64,000 bases of DNA, taken from NCBI GenBank assembly GCA_963836075.1, contig CAWIIB010000009.1:2048001-2112000 (forward strand). The letters run 5' to 3'. The translations under genes were made by a program, and so were the position numbers. The notes under the pieces are model-generated. The model did no database searches and was not told where the DNA came from. It saw only the letters and a program-made list of their open reading frames with translations. The stretch is from an uncultured Acidobacteriota bacterium (GTDB lineage Bacteria; Acidobacteriota; JAQAZP01). Positions 30,615 to 42,129 of this stretch are shown here, in pieces (within the stretch, counting starts at the first letter, position 1; each line of letters starts with the position of its first letter).

Positions 30615-33344
30615 GTGATGAACTTCTGGCTCCCCCGCCGAGGGGAGGTTTTTCTCTCCGCCCGATTCCCTGCCGGTTCCACCGGCCGGTTTTCCCGCCC
30701 GGGGAATGCCCTCCTCCTTTCTTTGATCTACCTGCTGTTCAGCCTGGTCTGCCCCGGTCCGGCCCGGGGGGATGAACCGGTGATTTTCGCTTTCGGCGAC
30801 AGCATTACCGAGGGGTGGGACGCCGATACGGGCAGCGAGGAGGCTGGCGGCTACGTGACGATCCTCGATGAACTTCTGGACACCCAGGTGGAGGAGAGCG
30901 TGGTCTACAACTTCGGGGTGGGGGGCGAAACCACCGCTAACGGGCTGGCCCGCCTGCCCTTTATTCTCTCGTTCATCGGGGACCGGATCCTGATCATGTT
31001 CGGGACCAACGATATCAGCTGGGGGATTTCCATCAACACCGCCCTGTTCAACCTCGAACAGATGCTCAACATGTGTCTTGCCGACGGTACAGCGCCGATG
31101 ATTTCCACCATCATCCCGCGCCTCGATGACCCCCGGGACCCGGACAACGCCCTGGCCCAGCAACTCAATGCCGGCATCGCCCTGCTGGCTCAGCAGGACG
31201 GCGTGGAGTTCTGTGACAACTGGGAGGTTTTCTACAACTACCTGCCGTCCCTTCGTGCCCTCTACTCCGACCGGTTGCACCCCAATGCCCTGGGCTACCA
31301 GGTGATGGCCGAGACGTGGCTCGGGGCGCTGGGCCGGCTCTATCCGCCGCCGTTTGTCAATACCATTTCACCCACCGGCATGGTCAACGGGCTTCCGGTG
31401 CCGGTGAGCATCACCGGAGGCAACTTCCTGCCCGGAGCCGTGCCGCACCTCGACCAGACCGAGTTGGTGTTCGTGGTGGTACCCTCCAGCGGCACCATCA
31501 GCGCCACGGTGCCGGCGGAGCTGCCCCCCGGGGTCTACGACGTGGTGGTGCTCAACCCCGGCGGCGTCGCGGGCACGCTGGCCAACGGTTTTACCATCAC
31601 CAATTCGCCGCCTGAGATCTACTCCATCACCCCCGACACGCTGGAGGCCGGGCAACGGGCCCGGGTCACGGTCCAGGGGCGGTTCATCGAACCGGGAGCC
31701 CAGTTGAGCGCCGGTGTGTTCGGCTTCGATCAGGTGAACGTGATCAGCGATTCGACGTTGCGGGCCCTCACCCCGGACGACATCGCGGTGGGGACATACG
31801 ACGTCCGGCTGTCCAATCCCGACGGTCAGACGGACCTGCTGGCCAACAGTTTTACCGTGGTGGACACCGGGGAGCCGGAGATCGGCAACTACTATCCGGC
31901 ACCAGGGTCCAGCGGCGCCTCGCGGCGCACCGGGATCAGGTTCAACCTGCGTGACAGCGGTTCGGGGATCAACATCGGCTCGCTCAACATGGTGGTCAAC
32001 GGCTCCGCTGTCATTCCCACCTCGAGCGGCACGCCCGGCGACTACTTCGTCGAATACCAGCCGCCGACCCAGTACGCGTTCGGACAGACGGTCTCGGTGT
32101 CGGTGGGGGTCAATGACTTCAACCAGCCGACGCCCAACGCGCTGAGCGTTCTCTACAACTTCACCGTCACCGGGTCCGCGGACAGTGACGCCGACAACCT
32201 GCCCGACGGCTGGGAAACGGCCAACAGCCTCGACCCCGGCAACCCCCTGGGGCTGGACGGCACGGCGGGCGACCCGGACCGGGACCTGCTGGGCAATCTT
32301 GCCGAGTACAACGGCGGCAGCGATCCCACCTCTCCCTGGCAGGTGGTGACCGGGCCGGGGCCGGGGCCCGGCAGCCGGCCGCTGATCAGGCTCTGGGACA
32401 CCAGCGGCGTGCAGCTGGGCGGCGTGGAGTGGACGCCTTACGGGGGCGGCGACTGGGGTGCCGACGTGGCCGCCGGGGACATCGACGGAGACGGACGCCA
32501 CGAGGTGCTCACCGGTCCCGGCCCGGGGCCGATCTACGGGCCGCAGGTCCGCGGTTTCGAGGCCGATGGCACCCAGGTGCCGGGGGTCAACTTTTTTGCT
32601 TACGGGACCAACCGCTACGGTGTGCGGGTGACGGCCGGCGACGTTGACGGCGACGGCGTCGACGAGATCGTCACCGGGGCCGGGCCGGGCGAAGTGTTCG
32701 GCCCCCACGTCCGCGCCTTTGACGTTTCCGGAAGTCTGGTGCAGTCCCTGCCGGGGATCAATTTCTTCGCCTACGGCACGCTGAAATACGGGGTCAACGT
32801 GGCCTGCGGCGACCTGGACGGCGACGGCGTCGACGAGATTGTCACCGGGGCGGGCCCGGGGGCGGTGTTCGGCCCCCACGTGCGCGCCTTCTCTTACAAC
32901 GGAGCGGGGGTGAGTGCGGTGCCGGGGGTCAGTTACTTTGCCTACGGCACACTGAAATACGGGGTCAACGTGGCCTGCGGCGACCTGGATGGCGACGGCA
33001 TCGACGAGATCGTCACCGGGGCGGGTCCGGGGGTGGTGTTCGGGCCCCACGTGCGGGGCTGGAACGTGGACGGCCACGCCGCGGCTGCCATACCCGGGGT
33101 CAGTTTCTTTGCTTTCAGCACCGACACTTACGGAGTCAACGTGGCCTGCGGTGACGTGGACGGCGACCGCCGGGACGAGATCATCACCGGCACCGGCCCG
33201 GGCCCGACTTTTGCCGCCCAGGTGCGCGGCTGGAAACTTGACCACGGTTCGGTGCAGGAGATTCCGGGGATGAATTTCTTCGCCTACGACCCATTCGTCT
33301 ATACCTACGGGGCCCGGGTGGCCGCGGGGCATTTCTACTACTAG
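30615..33344 (+). CDS. Secreted SGNH/GDSL hydrolase with IPT/TIG and Ig-like domains and C-terminal FG-GAP-like repeat module
   Basis: FGDSITEG, GVGGETT, GTND, DRLHPN; two IPT-like domains; DSDADNLPDGWE Ca motif; GDxDGDG repeats. Confidence 0.9.
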   Translation: MMNFWLPRRGEVFLSARFPAGSTGRFSRPGNALLLSLIYLLFSLVCPGPARGDEPVIFAFGDSITEGWDADTGSEEAGGYVTILDELLDTQVEESVVYNFGVGGETTANGLARLPFILSFIGDRILIMFGTNDISWGISINTALFNLEQMLNMCLADGTAPMISTIIPRLDDPRDPDNALAQQLNAGIALLAQQDGVEFCDNWEVFYNYLPSLRALYSDRLHPNALGYQVMAETWLGALGRLYPPPFVNTISPTGMVNGLPVPVSITGGNFLPGAVPHLDQTELVFVVVPSSGTISATVPAELPPGVYDVVVLNPGGVAGTLANGFTITNSPPEIYSITPDTLEAGQRARVTVQGRFIEPGAQLSAGVFGFDQVNVISDSTLRALTPDDIAVGTYDVRLSNPDGQTDLLANSFTVVDTGEPEIGNYYPAPGSSGASRRTGIRFNLRDSGSGINIGSLNMVVNGSAVIPTSSGTPGDYFVEYQPPTQYAFGQTVSVSVGVNDFNQPTPNALSVLYNFTVTGSADSDADNLPDGWETANSLDPGNPLGLDGTAGDPDRDLLGNLAEYNGGSDPTSPWQVVTGPGPGPGSRPLIRLWDTSGVQLGGVEWTPYGGGDWGADVAAGDIDGDGRHEVLTGPGPGPIYGPQVRGFEADGTQVPGVNFFAYGTNRYGVRVTAGDVDGDGVDEIVTGAGPGEVFGPHVRAFDVSGSLVQSLPGINFFAYGTLKYGVNVACGDLDGDGVDEIVTGAGPGAVFGPHVRAFSYNGAGVSAVPGVSYFAYGTLKYGVNVACGDLDGDGIDEIVTGAGPGVVFGPHVRGWNVDGHAAAAIPGVSFFAFSTDTYGVNVACGDVDGDRRDEIITGTGPGPTFAAQVRGWKLDHGSVQEIPGMNFFAYDPFVYTYGARVAAGHFYY

Positions 33345-34711: not shown

Positions 34712-35050
34712 ATGGAAACCATTCGGATGAAGGAGAAGATTCAGGCACTTCTGGGCTACGTGGAGTTGTGCCGCCTCGGCAAGCGCAAGGTGGTCTTCTG
34801 GTCCTACACGGTCACCGCCATTGCCGTTATCACCACCGTGGCCCTCGCCTTTTTCGGGGTGGCCATGGTGGAGGTCTTTGTCGGCACCCTGGCCGTCGCC
34901 CTGCTGGCCGGGCTGCTGGGCTACACGGTGAGCAGGGATCACCGTCGCTGGCGCTACGTCTCCGGTGAGCTGCGGGGCTGGCTGGCCGAGACGGAACGGG
35001 AGCTGCAGGAAAAACCGGCATTGCGCGATCGTTCTGGGGGAAGCATATGA
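34712..35050 (+). CDS. Small 2-TM membrane protein (gene 1 of the AAA operon)
   Basis: GAGGAGG RBS; two hydrophobic helices; ATGA overlap with the next gene. Confidence 0.75.
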   Translation: METIRMKEKIQALLGYVELCRLGKRKVVFWSYTVTAIAVITTVALAFFGVAMVEVFVGTLAVALLAGLLGYTVSRDHRRWRYVSGELRGWLAETERELQEKPALRDRSGGSI

Positions 35051-36157
35051 AACAGACCAGGGAAACCGCGTCCAAAGAGGCCCGGGAAATTCAGGAAAAG
35101 GGCCAGGTGGTCACCGGGATGTTCAAGGGCGACGTGGAGAAGTTCAAGGAGGAGTACAGCAAGTCGGAGCAGGAGGCCAAGGTCAAGATCAATCTCGACC
35201 ACGTGATAGCCCAGAAAACCCAGATCGGGATGGAGATCCAGGCCTCGGTGGAGAAGATCGTCCAGAACCTCGACGAGGCCACCCGCAAGATCATCGAGAT
35301 CAAGGGCCTCAGCGCCTGGGAGAAGTTCCTCTCCATCTTTGGCGGCAGCGGCAAGAACGCCGCGGTGCGCCACCACCTCCGGCGGGTCAAGTCGCAGAAC
35401 ATCTCCGAGAACATCAACACCACCATCGACTTTTCCCGCTACTATGAACAGTCTCTGGGCATGCTCATCGAGGAGGGGACCCGCGAGCTGGGGGAACTGG
35501 TGGCCCTGCGGGACCGCCTGAACCAGGACTACACCACCTCGGTGCGCGAAGCCCAGGAGCGCAAGGCCCGGCTGGACGAGCTGGACGTAAAGCTGGAGGA
35601 GAAGGAGAAGGACCGCGAGAACGCACTGGTGGAGGACCGGGGGGCCATCGAGGCCGGGATCAACCGCCTGCAGGACCAGCGGCGTGAGCTGCATGACCAG
35701 TGGCAGCAGGCTTCGATTCGCGGCCGGCTGGCCCAGGAGAACTACGAGACGGCCAAGAACTACGTGGCCGCTTTCGACACCTCGACCAAGAACCTCAAGG
35801 CGATCCAGCTCAAGCTGCAGGTACTCGCTGGACCAGACCGCCGAGATCCTGCAGAAGACCATCTCGGTGTTCAAGCGGGCCGAGACGGTCAAGGGGTCGG
35901 GGGCGATGTTCGACGCCTACCGCCAGACCCTCGACTCGCTGCACAGGATCACCGGCGACGCGGTGGAAGCGATCTCCGCGGAGACCTCGCGGATCCTCGA
36001 CCAGCCGTTGAACGATCCCGCGACCCAGGAGGCCAAGCGCAAGCAGATCGAGGAGGCCACCGAGCAGTTCCGTGAAGCGCTGATCCGGAACTACGACCGC
36101 CTGATCGAGAAGAACCGCGAGGCCGCGGCCGCGGGTGACGGGCCGGACGAGGCGTAA
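35047..36157 (+). CDS. Long coiled-coil protein (~369 aa after removing one extra G at ~35821)
   Basis: E/K/Q/R-rich helical sequence; CTGCAG-G-TACTCG joins ORF 35047 to ORF 35684-36157. Confidence 0.8.
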
Positions 36158-36174
36158 CCGGCACCGGGGGAACC

Positions 36175-37182
36175 ATGGAAAACGTGCTGCCCATCGAGGG
36201 CTGCGAGATCAATCCCTACCTCGAGCAACTCTCCTCGGCCCTGCAGGCCCTGGAAAAGGGCCTGCGTGCGGCGGACGAGGAGGACGTGGCCGACTACTGC
36301 CGGCAGATTGGCGATACCCTGGTCTTCTTCCGCTTCAGCGATGAGGACCAGAAGGAGGGCATCGATTCCCGGCTGCGCATCGACCCCAGCGCGTCCGGGT
36401 TCCCCAACAGCCTCGAGTTCATCCGGCTCTTCCAGGAAAAGAGCCGGGCCGGTGAAGTGCTGGCCGAACTGCCGGCCCAGGAAGACCTGGCCTCAGCCGC
36501 GATGCAGAAAATACTCGCCGGTGAGTTCCCGCTCGGTGAACAGCAGTCCAAGGTCCGCCTCGACTACTACCGCCGCCTGCGCGACATGCCCATCGTCAGG
36601 GATTTCGAGGTGGTGCGGGTGCGCGAGAACGGGTCCGGTGACGGCTGCCGGCGCTACCACCTCCACTGGCGGGGTCTGGACCAGTCGAAGAACCTGTTCG
36701 TGGCCTACTCCCTGGAACTGGAGCAGGACAAGGATGACCAACCGCTGGGCCGCAAGCACGGCAGCTTCGAACTGTTCACCACCCTGGAGCAGAAGTTCGG
36801 TCTGGGAGCGGCGCACCTGCTGAAGAGTGTGGATGCCTTTTCCGCCATCCACCCCAAGGCGGTGAAGCGCCACGTCATCGGGCCCTTCTACTGCGACCGG
36901 ACGCACAACGCCGGACCGCTGGCGGAGGTCTTTCAGGACGCACCCCAGCCATGGCTGCTGCGCTACCGCTGCGAGTCGGTGGTCAGCGAAAAAACGCTGG
37001 AGATCAAGAAGTCGATGTTTCGCAAGCCCGACCGGATGGAGCTCTGCTCCGACGAGGCGGCGGAGAACTTTGCCTACTGCCCGAACCGCATCCGCCAGGA
37101 ACTGGGTGAGATGTTCATCAACGGCGGCGAGGAGAACTACCGGGTGGTGGGTGTGGACGAAGAAGGACAAATCATTGATTGA
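36175..37182 (+). CDS. Hypothetical protein (gene 3 of the AAA operon)
   Basis: 335-aa ORF, strong GC3 codon pattern, RHVIGPFY motif, overlaps the next gene. Confidence 0.8.
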   Translation: MENVLPIEGCEINPYLEQLSSALQALEKGLRAADEEDVADYCRQIGDTLVFFRFSDEDQKEGIDSRLRIDPSASGFPNSLEFIRLFQEKSRAGEVLAELPAQEDLASAAMQKILAGEFPLGEQQSKVRLDYYRRLRDMPIVRDFEVVRVRENGSGDGCRRYHLHWRGLDQSKNLFVAYSLELEQDKDDQPLGRKHGSFELFTTLEQKFGLGAAHLLKSVDAFSAIHPKAVKRHVIGPFYCDRTHNAGPLAEVFQDAPQPWLLRYRCESVVSEKTLEIKKSMFRKPDRMELCSDEAAENFAYCPNRIRQELGEMFINGGEENYRVVGVDEEGQIID

Positions 37183-38896
37183 CGCGGAAAAACTGCTTCC
37201 CGGAGATCTGGCCGAGCACCGGAAAAAGGTCAAGGAACGTTTGCGGAACTTTCGTATCGACCCGCTGACACTCGACCTCTACCGCCTGGTCCGCGAGATC
37301 GACGACCAGGACCCGGACCTGATGAGTGTGGAGGAGACCAGCACCCTGCTGGCCGTGGAGGAGGGGCTTTCAGCCTTTTACGCCCTCTTCGGGCAGTTGG
37401 AGAACCTGCTGGAGATCCCGGCGCTGCGGGCCGATGCCACGCGGGACCGCAAGCTGCTGGAGCACCGCCTGACCTTCGCCTCGCTCTATTCCCTGTTCGC
37501 CGCCTCCTCGATCATCGCCGGCCGCACCGCCACCATCCGCGAGGGGCTGCCCCGGGAGGAGGTCCGCTCCTGGCCGCTGGACCTGGAAAGCGTGGCCGTG
37601 GATGCCAACGAGATCAGAACCTTCAACAACGTGGTCTCCCGTTTCCTGGTGGACCTCTGCGAGAAGAAGCCCGACCGCTCCCGGGTGGTGACCAGCAGCG
37701 CCGACTTCGTCTGCCTGACCCACGATTTCTTCCGCCAGCTGGCCGAACGCTGCACCCGGCTGAGCCAGTCCTACCTCGAGCTGCGCCCGGCGGTGGAGAA
37801 CCGCCACTTCCTCTTTGACGGGGTGTCGGTCTCCGGGTTCACCCTGCAGATCGAGGAACCGGAGAGCGTGGCGGTTTCCGGGGAGACCTTCGACCAGATG
37901 GTGGGCAACCGCGAACTGAAGACATCGCTGCTGGGCGTGGCGGACAAGATCCTGCTCTACGACCCGCGCACCCGCCGCAACCCGGCCAAGGAACTGGGTG
38001 ATTTCGCACGCACCCTCCTGCTCTACGGCCGGCCGGGAACCGGCAAGACCATGGCCATCAGCGCCCTGATCCACCAGTTGACCGTCAGGGCCAGGGAACT
38101 GGACAAGCCGTTCCGGGCGGTGCTCATCGGCAGCGACGTCAAAGATAAATATTTCGGCGAGTCGGTGAAAAATTTGAAGCGCAAGCTGGCCGAACTGCAC
38201 CGCGGCGACCGGATCTGCCTGGTGGCCATCGAGGACATCGACCTGATGCTGGCCTCCCGTGACGACGTCAATGTCAACGCCGCGGACAAGGATCTGCTGC
38301 ACGAACTGATGAACAGCCTGGAGGGTGTGGCGTCCCGGGACCTGGGCAACGCGGTGATCGTGGCCACCACCAACGACATCAAGGGCATCGAGGGCGCCCT
38401 GGCCGAGCGGCTGCAGGAGAACCCGCTGGAGGTCAGGGGGCCGGAGACCGCCGAGGACTTCGTTGCCCTGTTTCGCATCAAGCTGCGCCGCGGCCTGCCT
38501 GAATCGGAGGGCGGGGTGGGTGGCTATGTCCAGGTGCCGGACAAGGGCAGCCGCCGCCGGCCCGGGTGGCGGGAGATCGGCCAGGCCTGCCTGGAGTTCG
38601 GCTTCACCGGCCGTCCGGTGAAGAACATCTCCAAGCGGCTGATGACCGTCGCCGGGGAGTTCCCCATGCCCGAGGATGTTTATGGCCTCGACGGGGACCA
38701 GTGTGTGGACCGTCTGCGCGGCCTCTACCGGCCCATCGATGGTGCCACGGTGATGGCCGAGGTGGAGCGCTACCGGACCCACAGCCTGGCCCACGAGGAA
38801 GCGATGCGGGAGGAGCGGGTCCGCTCGCGCAAGGAAAGCCTGATCAACGAACTCCGGGCCAGCCGTCTGGCCCAGGAAGAGCTGCGAAAGGAGTAG
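37175..38896 (+). CDS. AAA+ ATPase, classic clade-like
   Basis: Walker A GRPGTGKT, pore loop KYFGES, Walker B VAIEDID, sensor 1 ATTN, GALAERL; TTG start assumed. Confidence 0.9.
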   Translation: MIDAEKLLPGDLAEHRKKVKERLRNFRIDPLTLDLYRLVREIDDQDPDLMSVEETSTLLAVEEGLSAFYALFGQLENLLEIPALRADATRDRKLLEHRLTFASLYSLFAASSIIAGRTATIREGLPREEVRSWPLDLESVAVDANEIRTFNNVVSRFLVDLCEKKPDRSRVVTSSADFVCLTHDFFRQLAERCTRLSQSYLELRPAVENRHFLFDGVSVSGFTLQIEEPESVAVSGETFDQMVGNRELKTSLLGVADKILLYDPRTRRNPAKELGDFARTLLLYGRPGTGKTMAISALIHQLTVRARELDKPFRAVLIGSDVKDKYFGESVKNLKRKLAELHRGDRICLVAIEDIDLMLASRDDVNVNAADKDLLHELMNSLEGVASRDLGNAVIVATTNDIKGIEGALAERLQENPLEVRGPETAEDFVALFRIKLRRGLPESEGGVGGYVQVPDKGSRRRPGWREIGQACLEFGFTGRPVKNISKRLMTVAGEFPMPEDVYGLDGDQCVDRLRGLYRPIDGATVMAEVERYRTHSLAHEEAMREERVRSRKESLINELRASRLAQEELRKE

Positions 38897-38900
38897 CCCC

Positions 38901-40277
38901 GTGCCGGTGACCTTCCAGCATGCGGTGGACGGGCTGAAGCGCCTCTTCGGCCGCAGCCGGGCCTTCCACCAGCTGCTGTCGGCCAGCGCCGGCCTCTTCC
39001 CGGTGGACGGCGCCCTGGCCCGGCGCTACCGCACCCTGCTGCGCGAGGTGCTGGGAATGGAGTGCGACCTCCCCTCCTTCACGGTGGACCGCGGAGGCTG
39101 GAGCCCCGAGGTGGCGCGGCAGCTGGGTCCCGACTACCTGCGCACCGGCGACACCACGCGGCTGCTGATCGTGCTCTCACCGGACCAGGCCCGGGCCGCC
39201 GTGCAGCACTGCGGCAGCTCCTACGAGCGGCTGGTCCTCCAGCGGCTCTACGAGGAGGGGCGGAAGCTCATCGGCTTCCTGACCTTCAAGCACCTGCTCT
39301 GGGGGGAGCTGGACGACCGGGCGGGCCTGATGGAGCGGCCGGACGACCTGCTGCTGGTGGAGACGGTGCAGCTCAGCCTGGACACCCAGTCGCGGGACCT
39401 GGAGAAACTGGCCCTCTTCCACCGCCAGGCCGCCGAGCTGCTCCGCGGGGACGGTCTCAACCGGGACTCCTCGATCCATGCCATGCTCCACCTGCGTGAC
39501 GAACTGGTCCAGCGGCTGGGCGACCTGCGGTCCCTGGAGTTCGACGGGCCGGTCACCCTGCGCATGGGCGTCGGTTCGTTCCACAGCGACCTCTTTGGCG
39601 GCTGCTACGTGCTGCGCGACACCGAATCGTGCCTGGTCCACGGGGACGGGGTGAAGCCCCCCGGGGAGCTGGTCTCCTCCAGCTTCCCCTGTTTCCGCTA
39701 CGATGCCCCCGAGCTGGTGGACTACCTGCAGGAGAAGGGTTTCGTCGAACTGCGCAGCGACCTGGTGGAACAGCGGATCAGGGAGATGGAAAACGAGCTT
39801 CTGCTGCAGCAGGACCTCAACCCGGCCCGGCTCCATTTTGTCCAGCGCCGCTACTACCTCAAGCAGCTGCGCAGCCTCTTTCCGGCCAGCTACTACGAAC
39901 TGCGCGACCTGCTGAAGATCCGCTCGGAACGCAAACACCGCAAGCGCATGGGCGAGCTGATGGCCCGCTGCGCGCCGGCCACCCGGCTCAAGCTGGCCGC
40001 GCCTGTTCGCCAGCCGGCCTTTGTCAGCCGGCTGCTGGCCGAGATCGACCCCACCGACTGCTACCGGCTCTACCGCTACAACACCGCGCGCTTCGAGGAC
40101 GTCTTCGGCCGGGCCTCGGAGGCGCACAAGACCTACATCTACGAATCCCTGCTCCTGGCCATCACCTCCACCGGGCAGTACAACCCGGAGGCCAACGCCT
40201 TCCTCAGCCGCTTCGTCGAACTGAATCGCCGGCTGAAGGTGCGTTTCGCCGAAGAGGATCAGGGCGCTTCCAGGTAG
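38901..40277 (+). CDS. DUF6638-like protein
   Basis: RYRTLL...FTVDRGGWSPEVA..LG.DYL and FHSDLFGGCYV resemble my recollection of DUF6638 proteins (not searched). Confidence 0.6.
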   Translation: MPVTFQHAVDGLKRLFGRSRAFHQLLSASAGLFPVDGALARRYRTLLREVLGMECDLPSFTVDRGGWSPEVARQLGPDYLRTGDTTRLLIVLSPDQARAAVQHCGSSYERLVLQRLYEEGRKLIGFLTFKHLLWGELDDRAGLMERPDDLLLVETVQLSLDTQSRDLEKLALFHRQAAELLRGDGLNRDSSIHAMLHLRDELVQRLGDLRSLEFDGPVTLRMGVGSFHSDLFGGCYVLRDTESCLVHGDGVKPPGELVSSSFPCFRYDAPELVDYLQEKGFVELRSDLVEQRIREMENELLLQQDLNPARLHFVQRRYYLKQLRSLFPASYYELRDLLKIRSERKHRKRMGELMARCAPATRLKLAAPVRQPAFVSRLLAEIDPTDCYRLYRYNTARFEDVFGRASEAHKTYIYESLLLAITSTGQYNPEANAFLSRFVELNRRLKVRFAEEDQGASR

Positions 40278-42129
40278 CCCAGCTCTTCCAGCTGTTTCCT
40301 GAGATCGTCGTCCCCGGTGGTGTGCCTGTCCCGCAGGGGCCAGCCGGTCCCGGGGAGCCCGTGGGCGTCCCGCGGTCTGTTCCAGCCGGCGGGCGAAATC
40401 GAGGAAGGGGGCGGCCAGCTCCGGGTTTTCGGCGAGGAGGTTGCTGGTCTCCTGCGGGTCGTCGTGCAGGTCGTAGAGCTCGTGCTGCCCGTCGCTGGAG
40501 TGGATGAACTTGTGCCTCCCCTGGACCAGCGAACGGCGGACCCGGTCGAACCGCTGGCCAAAGTCGGGATTCCGCTGATCGAATTTGAAGCTGTAGTAGT
40601 TCTCCGACACCGTGGGGCCGGTGCGCGGGGCCCCCAGGCTGACGCCGCTGACCGTGCCGGGAACCGGCAGGCCCAGGGCGGAGAGGACGGTGGGGAAGAC
40701 ATCCTCCAGCCCCACCGGTTCGGCAAAACGCCCCCGGGGCGACCCGCCGGGGTATTTGACCAGCAGGGGAATTTTCACCCCGCCCTCGTAGAGTTCCCGG
40801 CCGTGGAACACCAGCTGGTGTTCACCAAAGTATTCGCCGTGGTCGCTGGTGACGATGATCATGCTCGAATCGTAAAGGCCCCGGCGGCGCAGGTGGTCAA
40901 AGAGACGGCCCAGCTCACTGTCGAGGTAGCGGATCTCACCGTCATACTGGGACAGCAGGCCGGCCAGCTCCTGGTCGGTGAGGCTCCGCTTGCGGCCCAT
41001 CACGATTCTGCGCATCTGGAACTTGGAGAGGCTTGAGCCGCCCTTGCCGGGATAGACGGTGTCGTAGGGCGGCGGCGGCAGGTAGGGCCAGTGCGCGTCC
41101 ATGTAGTTGACAAAGAGAAAGAAGGGCGCCCGGGAGTGGCGGTCCAGCCAGTGGGTCACCCGGCCGTTGATCTGGCGGGCCGTGGCCGTCCCCTTGCGCA
41201 GCGTGGCCAGCCAGCCGGACCACGGGGAGGCCTGGAGAACCGGCTCGGTGAGCAGCGGGATCCGCGAGTTGCCGTTGCTCTGCCGGAGGTAGTCGTCGAA
41301 GCCCCGGTCGAGACGGAAGTGGGGATTGAGGATCGGGTTGGCGAAGATGGCGGCGGTCTGGTAGCCGGACTGCTGCAGCACCTGCGGCAGGGTGAGGATG
41401 GTGGAGGTCATGGGGTACGCCGCCAGCAGCAGCTGTCCTGTGGACCGCTCCTCCGGACGGTAGCTGTGCATGCGGTGCTGGCTGGGATAGAGCCCGGTGA
41501 ACAGCGAACCGTGGGCCGGCAGGGTCCAGGAGGCGGTGGACCGCGCCGAATCGCAGACCAGGCACTCTTCGGCAAATTCCTCCAGCACCGGCGTGGTGCG
41601 CTGCCGGTAGCCGTGAAGCGACAGGTGGTCGGCGCGCACCGTGTCCAGCAGCAGCACGATCACCGAGGCGCGTGTCGCAGCCTGTTCCCCGTTCTGCGGG
41701 AGGTCGGTGGTCTCGGTCCGCTTCCCGCAGGATTCGTCCATCCGCTGCCGCGGGAGACGCCCCTCGTAGAATCGGGGTGGCGGCCCGCAGGCCGAGGTAG
41801 ACCAGCAGCAGCAGAACGGCCAGGGCGGCAACCGTCCCGAACCCGCCCGGCGGAGCGGCCAGGGGCCGCGCCCGTCTCCGGGCCGCCAGCGCCAGGAGCA
41901 GCAGGGTGATCAGGCCGGCGGCCAGTCCGGCCAGGGCCCCGGCCGCGGTCACCGTGAGCCAGAGCCGGGTGAGCAGGGTCACTTCGATGAAGTCGCCGTT
42001 GAGCAGGATGCGCCGCCAGTCCACGGCCGCGGCCAGGGCACCGGCCACGGCGCCGCCAAGGGTGGCGGCGAGCAGGATCTGCGTGCCGCGCCGCACGGTG
42101 CCCCCCGCTTGCTCCGGGCTACTGCGCAT
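40259..42129 (-). CDS. Membrane-anchored sulfatase-like protein (apparent frameshifts ~41770 and ~40330)
   Basis: LLDTVRADHL, WTLPAHGSLFTGLYP, NYMDAHWPY, TSDHGE, ELYDLHDDPQE, LEELGYL; N-terminal TM helices. Confidence 0.8.

Follow-up and report, generated by a model that had tools for sequence, protein, structure and literature searches.

What do five tightly packed genes from an uncultured Acidobacteriota bacterium do together, and do they make up a system not yet described? The genes, g1 to g5, lie co-oriented on the + strand at positions 34712–40277 of the window, that is, of the whole 64,000-nucleotide stretch of DNA that was analysed (Table 1). The answer put forward here, to which we give about an even chance of being right, is that four of them form the conserved core of a dedicated ATP-driven protein-remodelling module, in which a complex of g3 with the DUF6638 protein would be assembled, reset, or activated by the AAA ATPase.

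Layout and components of the operon

The genes had been described from the sequence alone as co-oriented, with overlapping or 4–17 nt junctions and unrelated flanks, and all of this holds: g1 and g2 overlap by 4 nt (ATGA), g2 and g3 are separated by 17 nt, g3 and g4 overlap by 8 nt, and 4 nt separate g4 from g5. A GDSL lipase/FG-GAP protein and two unnamed ORFs lie upstream, and a convergent sulfatase, a class I LysRS, and a lipid A acyltransferase lie downstream; these flanks are kept across the genus of the window. The region has about as many terminator-like sites as chance would give (5 observed versus 4.4 expected). Each of the five genes is under purifying selection (dN/dS 0.08–0.33 versus two relatives), and the locus is best read as a functional operon. 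Only g4 and g5 match a family above the Pfam cut-off (PF00004 and PF20343, respectively); g1, g2, and g3 match none. GTG 37151 is another possible start for g4.

Table 1. Features of the operon, in window coordinates
Feature	Position	Strand	Description
g1	34712-35050	+	112 aa; AGGAGG ~10 nt 5' of ATG
g2	35047-36157	+	~370-aa coiled-coil protein; two frames in the present assembly
Single-base insertion (extra G) breaking g2	35818-35823	+	DNA alignment and sequencing-run contigs
g3	36175-37182	+	335 aa; unnamed family
g4	37175-38896	+	AAA ATPase, 573 aa from TTG 37175; AAGGA 8-9 nt upstream
g5	38901-40277	+	DUF6638 family, 458 aa; PF20343 match above cut-off

The g4 protein matches PF00004 with an E value of 9.7e-18 (65.3 bits versus a cut-off of 21.2) and comprises one AAA module, a helical N-domain of ~245 aa, and a C-terminal extension that carries an invariant FTGR motif and is ~100 aa long in g4 and ~150 aa in archaeal homologues. 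Its best matches among PDB sequences are Cdc48, VAT, and AFG2 (E 3.5e-15 to 1e-12), and these nearest solved relatives, together with a conserved K-aromatic-aromatic-G pore loop, bear out the earlier placement of g4 in the classic clade. Across 12 AAA homologues, G.PGTGK, [ED]-D at Walker B, the pore-loop K, TN, and AL..R are invariant, with g4 T434, N435, and R447 falling in the second region of homology (a sensor-1 Asn and one arginine finger); pore loop 1 reads K-Y-F-G in g4 and K-[YFWM]-[FY]-[GS] in the homologues. Walker B is IED in the genus of the window and DD in the homologues from archaea and Trueperaceae, with Asp invariant at its second acidic position; as this replaces the catalytic Glu, normal ATP hydrolysis by g4 is not assured. 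The g4 module shares its best sequence matches (E 3.5e-15 to 1e-9) and its Walker A, pore-loop, and SRH pattern with the Cdc48/p97/VAT and PAN unfoldases but differs from them in having one AAA module rather than two, in NCBIfam scores far under the family cut-offs (38 bits versus 500), in N- and C-terminal domains unlike theirs, and in lacking a proteasome or ubiquitin-like context. A profile of the N-domain gives no significant match against the PDB (best E 0.029).

The g5 protein matches DUF6638 above the cut-off over model positions 12–392 of 439 (E 1.3e-16, 60.9 bits versus a cut-off of 27; 57 bits in a six-frame search), and 52 columns are invariant across 10 bacterial and archaeal members; g5 has no match among PDB sequences, and a literature search returned no paper naming DUF6638. 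At E ≤ 1e-3 the g3 family has 441 cluster representatives, of which 293 remain at E ≤ 1e-10, with no Pfam family common to more than one of 51 members. The AF2 model of g3 (pLDDT 71, pTM 0.73) shows a helical bundle at the N terminus, then an alpha/beta domain, and at the C terminus a tail that is conserved but modelled with low confidence; neither its sequence, compared with PDB sequences, nor the model, compared by Foldseek with the PDB and BFVD at E ≤ 1e-3, finds a match. Prediction of a g3–DUF6638 complex, run on alignments built within the present analysis, gives a median ipSAE of 0.41 (runs 0.41, 0.29, and 0.57; best control 0.00), with contact agreement of at least 92% and a partner pLDDT of at least 80. 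This is a weak pass: of 80 solved complexes, 58 reach the same mark, as against 2 of 110 mismatched pairs, but just 7 of the 80 complexes and both of those mismatched pairs do so with an ipSAE of 0.60 or below. The model lends weak support to the idea that g3 may bind DUF6638.

The g2 model is all helix (pLDDT 54) and confident only in a hairpin at residues ~140–250. When members from Acidobacteriota, archaea, and Deinococcota are combined into a profile, it finds, over nearly full length, proteins of Vibrio (E 2.5e-26), Sinorhizobium (E 6e-23), and Rhizobium (E 1e-21); those of Vibrio and Sinorhizobium carry no annotation beyond hypothetical protein. The Foldseek rows for this low-scoring model are headed by ClyA-family toxins, chemoreceptors, and SMC arms, with E values of 5e-3 to 6e-2 and TM of ~0.2–0.37. 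The ClyA-family toxins at the top (AhlB/C, SmhB, MakA, and YaxB) are likewise long helical hairpin proteins, of 250–350 aa, but g2 has neither a sequence match to them nor an export signal, and the modelled resemblance may be no more than a general helical likeness.

Distribution of the four-gene core

Synteny of coiled coil, g3, AAA, and DUF6638, in that order, is seen in one Acidobacteriota genus, in Deinococcota, in Vibrio, in Sinorhizobium and Rhizobium, which are easily handled in the laboratory, and in DPANN archaea. This verifies the statement in the sequence-only reading that DUF6638 genes adjoin AAA ATPases in other phyla, and the synteny whose failure that reading had named beforehand as its refutation extends to other genomes and other domains of life. 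All five genes occur in 5/5 loci of the genus of the window (L005, L006, L019, L020, and L021), and g3, g4, and g5 occur in order in 9/9 DPANN loci (tblastn); profile searches find the full four-gene cassette in L049, L050, Vibrio vulnificus (L054), Sinorhizobium meliloti (L055), and Rhizobium leguminosarum (L056). Looser arrangements also exist: a Trueperaceae genome keeps coiled coil, g3, and AAA together with DUF6638 130 kb away, and in two further Deinococcota genomes g3 and DUF6638 are 2.1–2.2 kb apart on one strand. The AAA profile finds the middle gene weakly in one distant archaeal locus (L044, E 2.2e-9) and misses it at E ≤ 1e-3 in two others (L046 and L048), the L048 gene having a Pfam AAA match only (E 0.0044).

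The cassette is sparse, being present in 3 of the 401 Acidobacteriota genomes sampled (1 of 227 genera), 8 of 301 sampled from the archaeal phylum, and 3 of 251 from the Deinococcota. Bacterial and archaeal rows are interleaved in the g3 tree, and on sequence grounds the cassette is judged to move between lineages. Such a sparse, cross-domain spread points to a putative accessory function in stress or conflict rather than to housekeeping. No characterised system was matched in Pfam, NCBIfam, PADLOC, or PHROGs, so that the candidate undescribed system proposed earlier stands, and these searches support the view that the four-gene cassette probably corresponds to no characterised system.

The remaining gene, g1, stands outside this core. 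It encodes two hydrophobic helices (residues ~29–50 and 52–72), has Pfam matches only below cut-off, and weakly matches PHROG 14455 (unknown function; E 3.3e-5). It is 66%–93% identical among the five loci of its genus, with dN/dS 0.11–0.33, but is confined to that Acidobacteriota genus, most archaeal loci having no equivalent at the corresponding place. It is a lineage-specific accessory gene, and its proposed part as the membrane anchor of the system is not supported. Other lineages have membrane neighbours of their own: DUF2333 in Sinorhizobium, a TM protein of 605–666 aa in DPANN archaea (hydrophobic stretch called in 4/9), and a TM lipase-like hydrolase beside the core in one archaeon. 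These lineage-specific proteins suggest that the output of the cassette is at the membrane; as they are unrelated to one another across lineages, however, the membrane link is a theme and not a conserved part.

A candidate remodelling module and its alternatives

In the proposed module, g3 and DUF6638 would form a complex, for which the coiled-coil protein may serve as scaffold or adaptor. The AAA ring, via its conserved pore loop, would then pull on a co-encoded partner—the choice of substrate being a guess—and this pulling would assemble, reset, or activate the complex. What the complex needs would be generic ATP-driven protein remodelling, as may be read from an archaeal variant (L045) in which a J-domain protein and an Hsp90-like ATPase take the place of the AAA. 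The order there is J-domain coiled-coil protein, g3, DUF6638-like gene (E 9e-18 in a profile search), and a 708-aa ATPase of the Hsp90 family, sacsin-like (E 1.8e-16). The J domain is C-terminal (NCBIfam DnaJ E 1.9e-8; HPD in the translation; PF00226 precomputed), and the coiled-coil protein carrying it is not matched by the g2 coiled-coil profile and is therefore a positional analogue only. Likeness to Hsp70 J-domain co-chaperones and Hsp90-type ATPases is confined to this variant, which is known from a single archaeal lineage (2 protein clusters), whereas the cassette in the window has neither domain. Envelope remodelling, stress response, and defence are all possible roles for the cassette.

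Somewhat improbable, though the best placed of the alternatives, is an anti-phage or other conflict system in which the core senses or regulates and lineage-specific neighbours act as killing or arresting effectors. Candidates for such effectors are the two-TM g1, a 710-aa archaeal TM alpha/beta hydrolase of lipase-like type (PGAP1, Lipase_2, and DUF676 matches), a second P-loop ATPase (763 aa), and an ATPase of GHKL type with a match to PADLOC TmtA (E 1e-13); variable accessory genes beside the core and its sparse, cross-domain distribution would fit such a role. A PADLOC check had been called for, and PADLOC-DB 2.0.0 matches no defence system; as this release dates from 2023, newer systems fall outside its coverage. 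Here g4 gives weak matches through its AAA domain only, to IetA and TRIP13 models (E 1e-4 to 1e-3; best IetA 1.2e-4), but g1, g2, g3, and g5 give none, and nor do the archaeal accessory proteins that were tested. IetAS and other AAA-containing defence systems resemble the cassette in having an AAA ATPase within a small accessory operon of patchy distribution; the cassette nevertheless has no IetS-type protease, and no component besides the g4 AAA domain matches. Moreover, the cassette has ordinary neighbours (LysRS, sulfatase, tdk, fhs, and mfd) rather than defence islands, both in the window and in Sinorhizobium and Vibrio, and within the genus its flanks stay the same. No relatives were found on viral contigs or phages, which is neutral for a conflict function.

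A less probable account still, and the one towards which the sequence-only reading leaned, makes the coiled-coil protein a membrane polymer of PspA/ESCRT-III/TelA type, anchored by g1 and taken apart by a Vps4-like AAA motor during envelope remodelling. The all-helical g2 with its long confident hairpin, the classic-clade g4 with its pore loop, and the overlap of the small two-TM gene g1 with the start of g2 would suit it, and PspA and Snf7 clades linked to AAA+ ATPases have been described (PMC11237479). With Vps4/CdvC–ESCRT-III (Snf7/CdvB) and the PspA/Vipp1 clades, the cassette shares a single-ring classic-clade AAA with a pore loop beside a helical partner and, sometimes, adjoining membrane proteins. 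The profile searches are, however, negative throughout. Of 15 coiled-coil proteins, 10 searched at E ≤ 1 and 5 at E ≤ 0.1, none matches the Pfam models of PspA_IM30, Snf7, and TelA, and a six-frame search of the whole genome returns no match to PF04012 (PspA_IM30), PF05816 (TelA), PF03357 (Snf7), or PF04212 (MIT), the controls being positive in 9, 4, 1, and 1 (Sulfolobus) of 14 genomes, respectively. The MIT domain is not among the Pfam matches of g4, and the Foldseek rows for the low-confidence g2 model, a comparison suggested earlier, list no ESCRT-III, PspA, or Vipp1. TelA toxic-anion-resistance proteins share with g2 a length of ~370 aa and an all-helical composition but likewise go unmatched. 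The g4 N-domain of ~245 aa has no relative among solved structures, the g4 Walker B is [ED]-D, g1 is absent from other lineages, and the two obligatory partners with the tightest linkage, g3 and DUF6638, have neither a place in this account nor a counterpart in the known systems. A membrane-bound polymer with a Vps4-like motor is thus not supported.

The break in g2

As had been noticed from the sequence, g2 is split in the window between a frame starting at 35047 and one ending at 36157, by one extra G near 35820–35821: the window reads CAGGTAC where three aligned relatives (L005, L019, and L020) read CAGTA[CT]. The gene is unbroken, at 370–371 aa, in 5/5 related loci; one base is missing at 35820 from contigs of sequencing runs X1, X3, and X6, and in run X2 the contig is clipped right at the break (35821). 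Both halves of g2 have dN/dS 0.08–0.13.

It is very improbable that the operon is a relic in decay, or rides on a mobile element or virus as cargo that does nothing for the cell, with a real frameshift marking its loss: the frameshift in the window, the evident movement of the cassette between domains, and an IS4-like element with an endonuclease-domain gene inside the cassette of Sinorhizobium meliloti Ak57 would favour this, but the extra base is missing from every relative and from the contigs of three runs, selection on both halves (dN/dS ~0.1) persists, there is no integrase, g2, g3, and g5 have no PHROG match, and viral contigs hold no relatives. The neighbouring sulfatase gene, too, changes frame partway and differs by indels at 40338–40341, which points to indel errors in the assembly. 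As the extra G is absent from all five relatives and from three runs' contigs, g2 is most likely intact in nature; for its break, these alignments make either a private mutation or an error of assembly the most likely cause.

Operon layout and conservation of gene order

The five co-directional genes (Table) overlap by 4 nt at g1/g2 and by 8 nt at g3/g4, and are spaced by 17 nt at g2/g3 and by 4 nt at g4/g5, which bears out the operon described in the sequence-only reading. A Pfam search of g1 to g5 matched just two of them: g4 to AAA (PF00004, E 9.7e-18) and g5 to DUF6638 (PF20343, E 1.3e-16, 60.9 bits against a cut-off of 27). The neighbours are unrelated to the operon, comprising a GDSL lipase/FG-GAP protein and two unnamed open reading frames upstream, and a convergent sulfatase, a class I lysyl-tRNA synthetase, and a lipid A acyltransferase downstream. 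The upstream lipase-type protein keeps its position in the loci of the genus. A promoter scan found 0 sigma-70-like sites against 0.5 expected, a comparison that is uninformative for this phylum.

Features of the operon and its flanks (window positions)
Feature	Position	Strand	Description
Upstream protein	30615-33344		909 aa; GDSL lipase domain, TIG domain, and FG-GAP repeats
Operon g1 to g5	34712-40277	+	Five genes
g1		+	112 aa; two hydrophobic helices
g2		+	~370 aa; all-helical; frame shifts near 35820
g3		+	335 aa
g4	start TTG 37175 (if used)	+	AAA ATPase; 573 aa with this start
g5		+	458 aa; DUF6638
Sulfatase gene	40259-41831	-	Split over two frames
Sulfatase, first part	40727-41831	-	Pfam Sulfatase domain
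Sulfatase, second part	40259-40726	-	Plausible C-terminus

Homologues are syntenic elsewhere, the point on which the sequence-only reading had made its proposal depend: the cassette (coiled-coil gene, g3, AAA ATPase, and DUF6638 gene, in this order) occurs in DPANN archaea, in Pseudomonadota, and partly in Deinococcota. Scanning a DUF6638 alignment against one genome per species returned 12 loci, of which two belong to the window's genus, nine to DPANN archaea, and one to a Trueperaceae bacterium. The DPANN loci span Woesearchaeota, Nanoarchaeia, Pacearchaeota, and unnamed groups; tblastn placed g3, g4, and g5 in the same order in all nine, and a coiled-coil gene of 368-413 aa lies directly upstream in all eight that reach that far. 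The Trueperaceae genome (G404) holds coiled coil, g3, and AAA together (L034), with its sole DUF6638 gene (L018) about 130 kb off among unrelated genes. Two further Deinococcota genomes carry g3 and DUF6638 on one strand, 2.1-2.2 kb apart, and a coiled-coil gene upstream.

Complete cassettes were also found in Vibrio vulnificus, Sinorhizobium meliloti, and Rhizobium leguminosarum by tblastn of plasmid and chromid records. Profile matches in these three Pseudomonadota cassettes reach E 1e-61 to 1e-72 for g3, 1e-72 to 1e-81 for the ATPase, and 1e-35 to 1e-52 for DUF6638, and the coiled-coil profile matches at near full length (E 2.5e-26, 6e-23, and 1e-21, respectively, by species). By hhalign alone, the Acidobacteriota and archaeal coiled-coil proteins have a 50% probability of homology; the case for homologous coiled-coil proteins across the lineages is convincing at the level of profiles because the joint profile matches the proteobacterial proteins over their full length. 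A word-based homologue search with the coiled-coil alignment gave four proteins only, low-complexity candidates having crowded the search. In S. meliloti Ak57, a gene with an endonuclease domain lies, together with an IS4-like ISRm16 transposase, between the ATPase and DUF6638 genes (L055, 6997-8742), and only 3 nt separate DUF6638 from the DUF2333 membrane protein gene behind it.

Beyond these loci, the g3 family is large and unnamed: at E<=1e-3 it takes in 441 cluster representatives out of 1.84 billion, and no Pfam family is shared by more than one of the 51 members scanned. Its distribution is sparse, with members in 3 of 401 Acidobacteriota genomes (a single genus out of 227), 8 of 301 genomes from the archaeal phylum of genome G401, and 3 of 251 Deinococcota genomes. 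Bacterial and archaeal rows are interleaved in the g3 tree (29 rows, unrooted, long branches flagged), in which the 'DPANN' label on metagenome rows is an assumption. There, Deinococcota join two archaeal rows with support of 92/79, and the clade of the window groups with a Woesearchaeota protein and one further protein from Acidobacteriota (93/85, drawn open). Sparse spread and interleaving, taken together, form the pattern of what would be an accessory cassette moving between lineages.

Distant archaeal loci keep the coiled-coil gene before g3, with the ATPase and a DUF6638-like gene after it, and have extra genes added. Three of them (L044, L046, and L047) share a conserved trio: a ~760-aa P-loop ATPase with weak Mg_chelatase/AAA matches, and proteins of ~270 aa and ~470 aa that matched no family. 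One (L047) has in addition a 710-aa transmembrane alpha/beta hydrolase of the lipase type. The archaeal accessory genes g6, g7, and g8 matched no Pfam, PADLOC, NCBIfam, or PHROG family and had no homologue in the window's genome. Unrelated membrane proteins adjoin the core in several lineages, namely g1 in the window, DUF2333 in Sinorhizobium, and a 605-666-aa transmembrane protein in DPANN archaea, for which a hydrophobic stretch was called in four of nine.

A further archaeal locus (L045; G578:C7, 5781-11761) is a cassette variant without AAA, in a genome that also holds an AAA-type cassette on another contig (L044). Its order is coiled coil, g3, and DUF6638-like gene, followed by a 708-aa Hsp90 family/sacsin-like GHKL ATPase, and its coiled-coil protein ends in a C-terminal J domain with an HPD motif. 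A J domain and an Hsp90-like ATPase here stand in place of the AAA; if this positional replacement, seen in one lineage, is meaningful, the coiled coil-g3-DUF6638 set would need an ATP-driven protein-remodelling motor of whichever kind.

The ATPase and its partner proteins

By sequence, the closest solved relatives of g4 are Cdc48, VAT, and AFG2 (E 3.5e-15 to 1e-12). Walker A, a pore-loop lysine, the sensor-1 TN, one arginine of the second region of homology, and a C-terminal FTGR are invariant in 12 homologues. The pore loop reads K-Y-F-G in g4 and K-[YFWM]-[FY]-[GS] in the other homologues, the sequence signature of a putative substrate-threading ring. Walker B (window 38234-38236 region) is [ED]-D: where classic AAA proteins have their catalytic glutamate, the 12 aligned homologues have an invariant aspartate. 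No solved structure is related to the 245-aa N-domain (profile against PDB sequences, best E 0.029), and Pfam found no MIT domain in g4.

For the partner proteins g3, g5, and g2, PDB sequence profiles gave nothing significant, and the ESM Atlas held no usable g5 match and g3 scores of <=0.84. The g3 model, of moderate confidence (pLDDT 71, pTM 0.73), combines a bundle of five helices with an alpha/beta domain and ends in a C-terminal tail that is conserved but of low confidence; Foldseek matched it to nothing at E<=1e-3 in PDB or BFVD. Weak Foldseek rows for GTP cyclohydrolase I/QueF-like proteins (TM 0.15-0.4) and levivirus maturation proteins (TM ~0.1) were taken as noise. The g2 model is poor (pLDDT 54) except for a long helical hairpin, and its Foldseek rows were generic long-helix proteins only. 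An alignment of bacterial and archaeal DUF6638 members shows 52 invariant columns. Complex prediction for g3 with DUF6638 returned a median score of 0.41, the best control scoring 0.00, and gives weak support to a predicted g3-DUF6638 interaction.

Candidate roles of the cassette

The cassette has roughly an even chance of being a dedicated protein-remodelling module. The main rival, a role in conflict or defence, is unlikely. NCBIfam, PADLOC, and PHROGs returned weak matches only, restricted to the AAA domain, and one weak g1 PHROG without assigned function. Membership in a known defence system was rejected, PADLOC finding no system beyond the weak AAA matches, as was a phage or mobile origin, since g2, g3, and g5 had no PHROG match; DUF6638 and g3 patterns found no relatives in viral contigs, and tblastn found no g3 match in phage records. 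The membrane-polymer mechanism of the PspA/ESCRT-III/TelA type, favoured in the sequence-only reading, is not supported, and membership in these families was rejected on Pfam scans and genome-wide family searches: PspA_IM30, Snf7, and TelA matched none of 15 coiled-coil proteins, and neither these families nor MIT has a match anywhere in the window's genome (94.7% complete), the same searches being positive in control genomes (PspA in 9 of 14).

The same reading's proposal of a candidate undescribed system stands. We found no literature naming 'DUF6638' or 'PF20343'. The passages covered of two comparative-genomics papers, PMC11237479 and PMC6393860, describe no comparable cassette; supplementary tables of these papers (e.g. 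Table S3 and Text S2.2 of PMC11237479) could list related AAA neighbourhoods. Three of the cassette's four conserved proteins are without a known fold relative, function, or publication. The order of its genes is the same in tiny DPANN archaea as in Vibrio and rhizobia, and such conservation almost always indicates a physical machine. A classic unfoldase-type ATPase is paired here with partners other than ESCRT-III, PspA, proteasome, or protease, which would give the AAA family a new client system.

Beyond the protein-remodelling module itself, a fuller scheme is tentative and somewhat doubtful. The cassette would be an unrecognised machine, spread horizontally over Bacteria and Archaea, in which an interchangeable motor of the chaperone type acts on a three-family complex (coiled coil, g3, and DUF6638). 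Most lineages would use a classic AAA unfoldase as this motor, and one lineage a J-domain/Hsp70 plus Hsp90-like ATPase. The machine's output would be directed to the membrane via lineage-specific partners, and the whole would form a stress or immune module of a new class, with regulated protein unfolding at its base.

Since rhizobia carry the cassette, it is directly testable by ordinary genetics and pull-downs in the harmless and tractable S. meliloti and R. leguminosarum, and no cultured Acidobacteriota or DPANN strain is needed. The S. meliloti gene SMc02733, from the map near trpE and choX, may be a cassette gene; this possible lead to an envelope-stress regulator is not counted as evidence. 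A passage in PMC3687685 places a ChvI-bound DNA fragment inside SMc02733.

The g2 frameshift and the assembly

In the window, g2 is interrupted by one extra G, a DNA alignment giving CAGGTAC against CAGTA[CT] in three relatives, and in each of the five related loci of the genus (L005, L006, L019, L020, and L021) it runs through as one frame of 370-371 aa. In three sequencing runs the contigs lack a base at 35820, and a fourth run's contig is clipped exactly at the break; all run data compared are DNA contigs, and uncovered parts in runs X1 and X2 carry no meaning. Against two relatives, dN/dS is 0.08-0.13 for each half of g2 and 0.11-0.33 for g1, g3, g4, and g5. The window's assembly totals 6.23 Mb in 10 contigs, and the split sulfatase gene, together with single-base indel differences at 40338-40341 in other runs' contigs, suggests that it contains indel errors. 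Given the intact frames of relatives, the run contigs, the low dN/dS, and the split sulfatase, the g2 break reads as a private mutation or an indel of the assembly rather than as gene decay. Contigs of runs X3 and X6, from more distant strains, have an extra G behind 38895, at the final g4 codons just before the g5 start.
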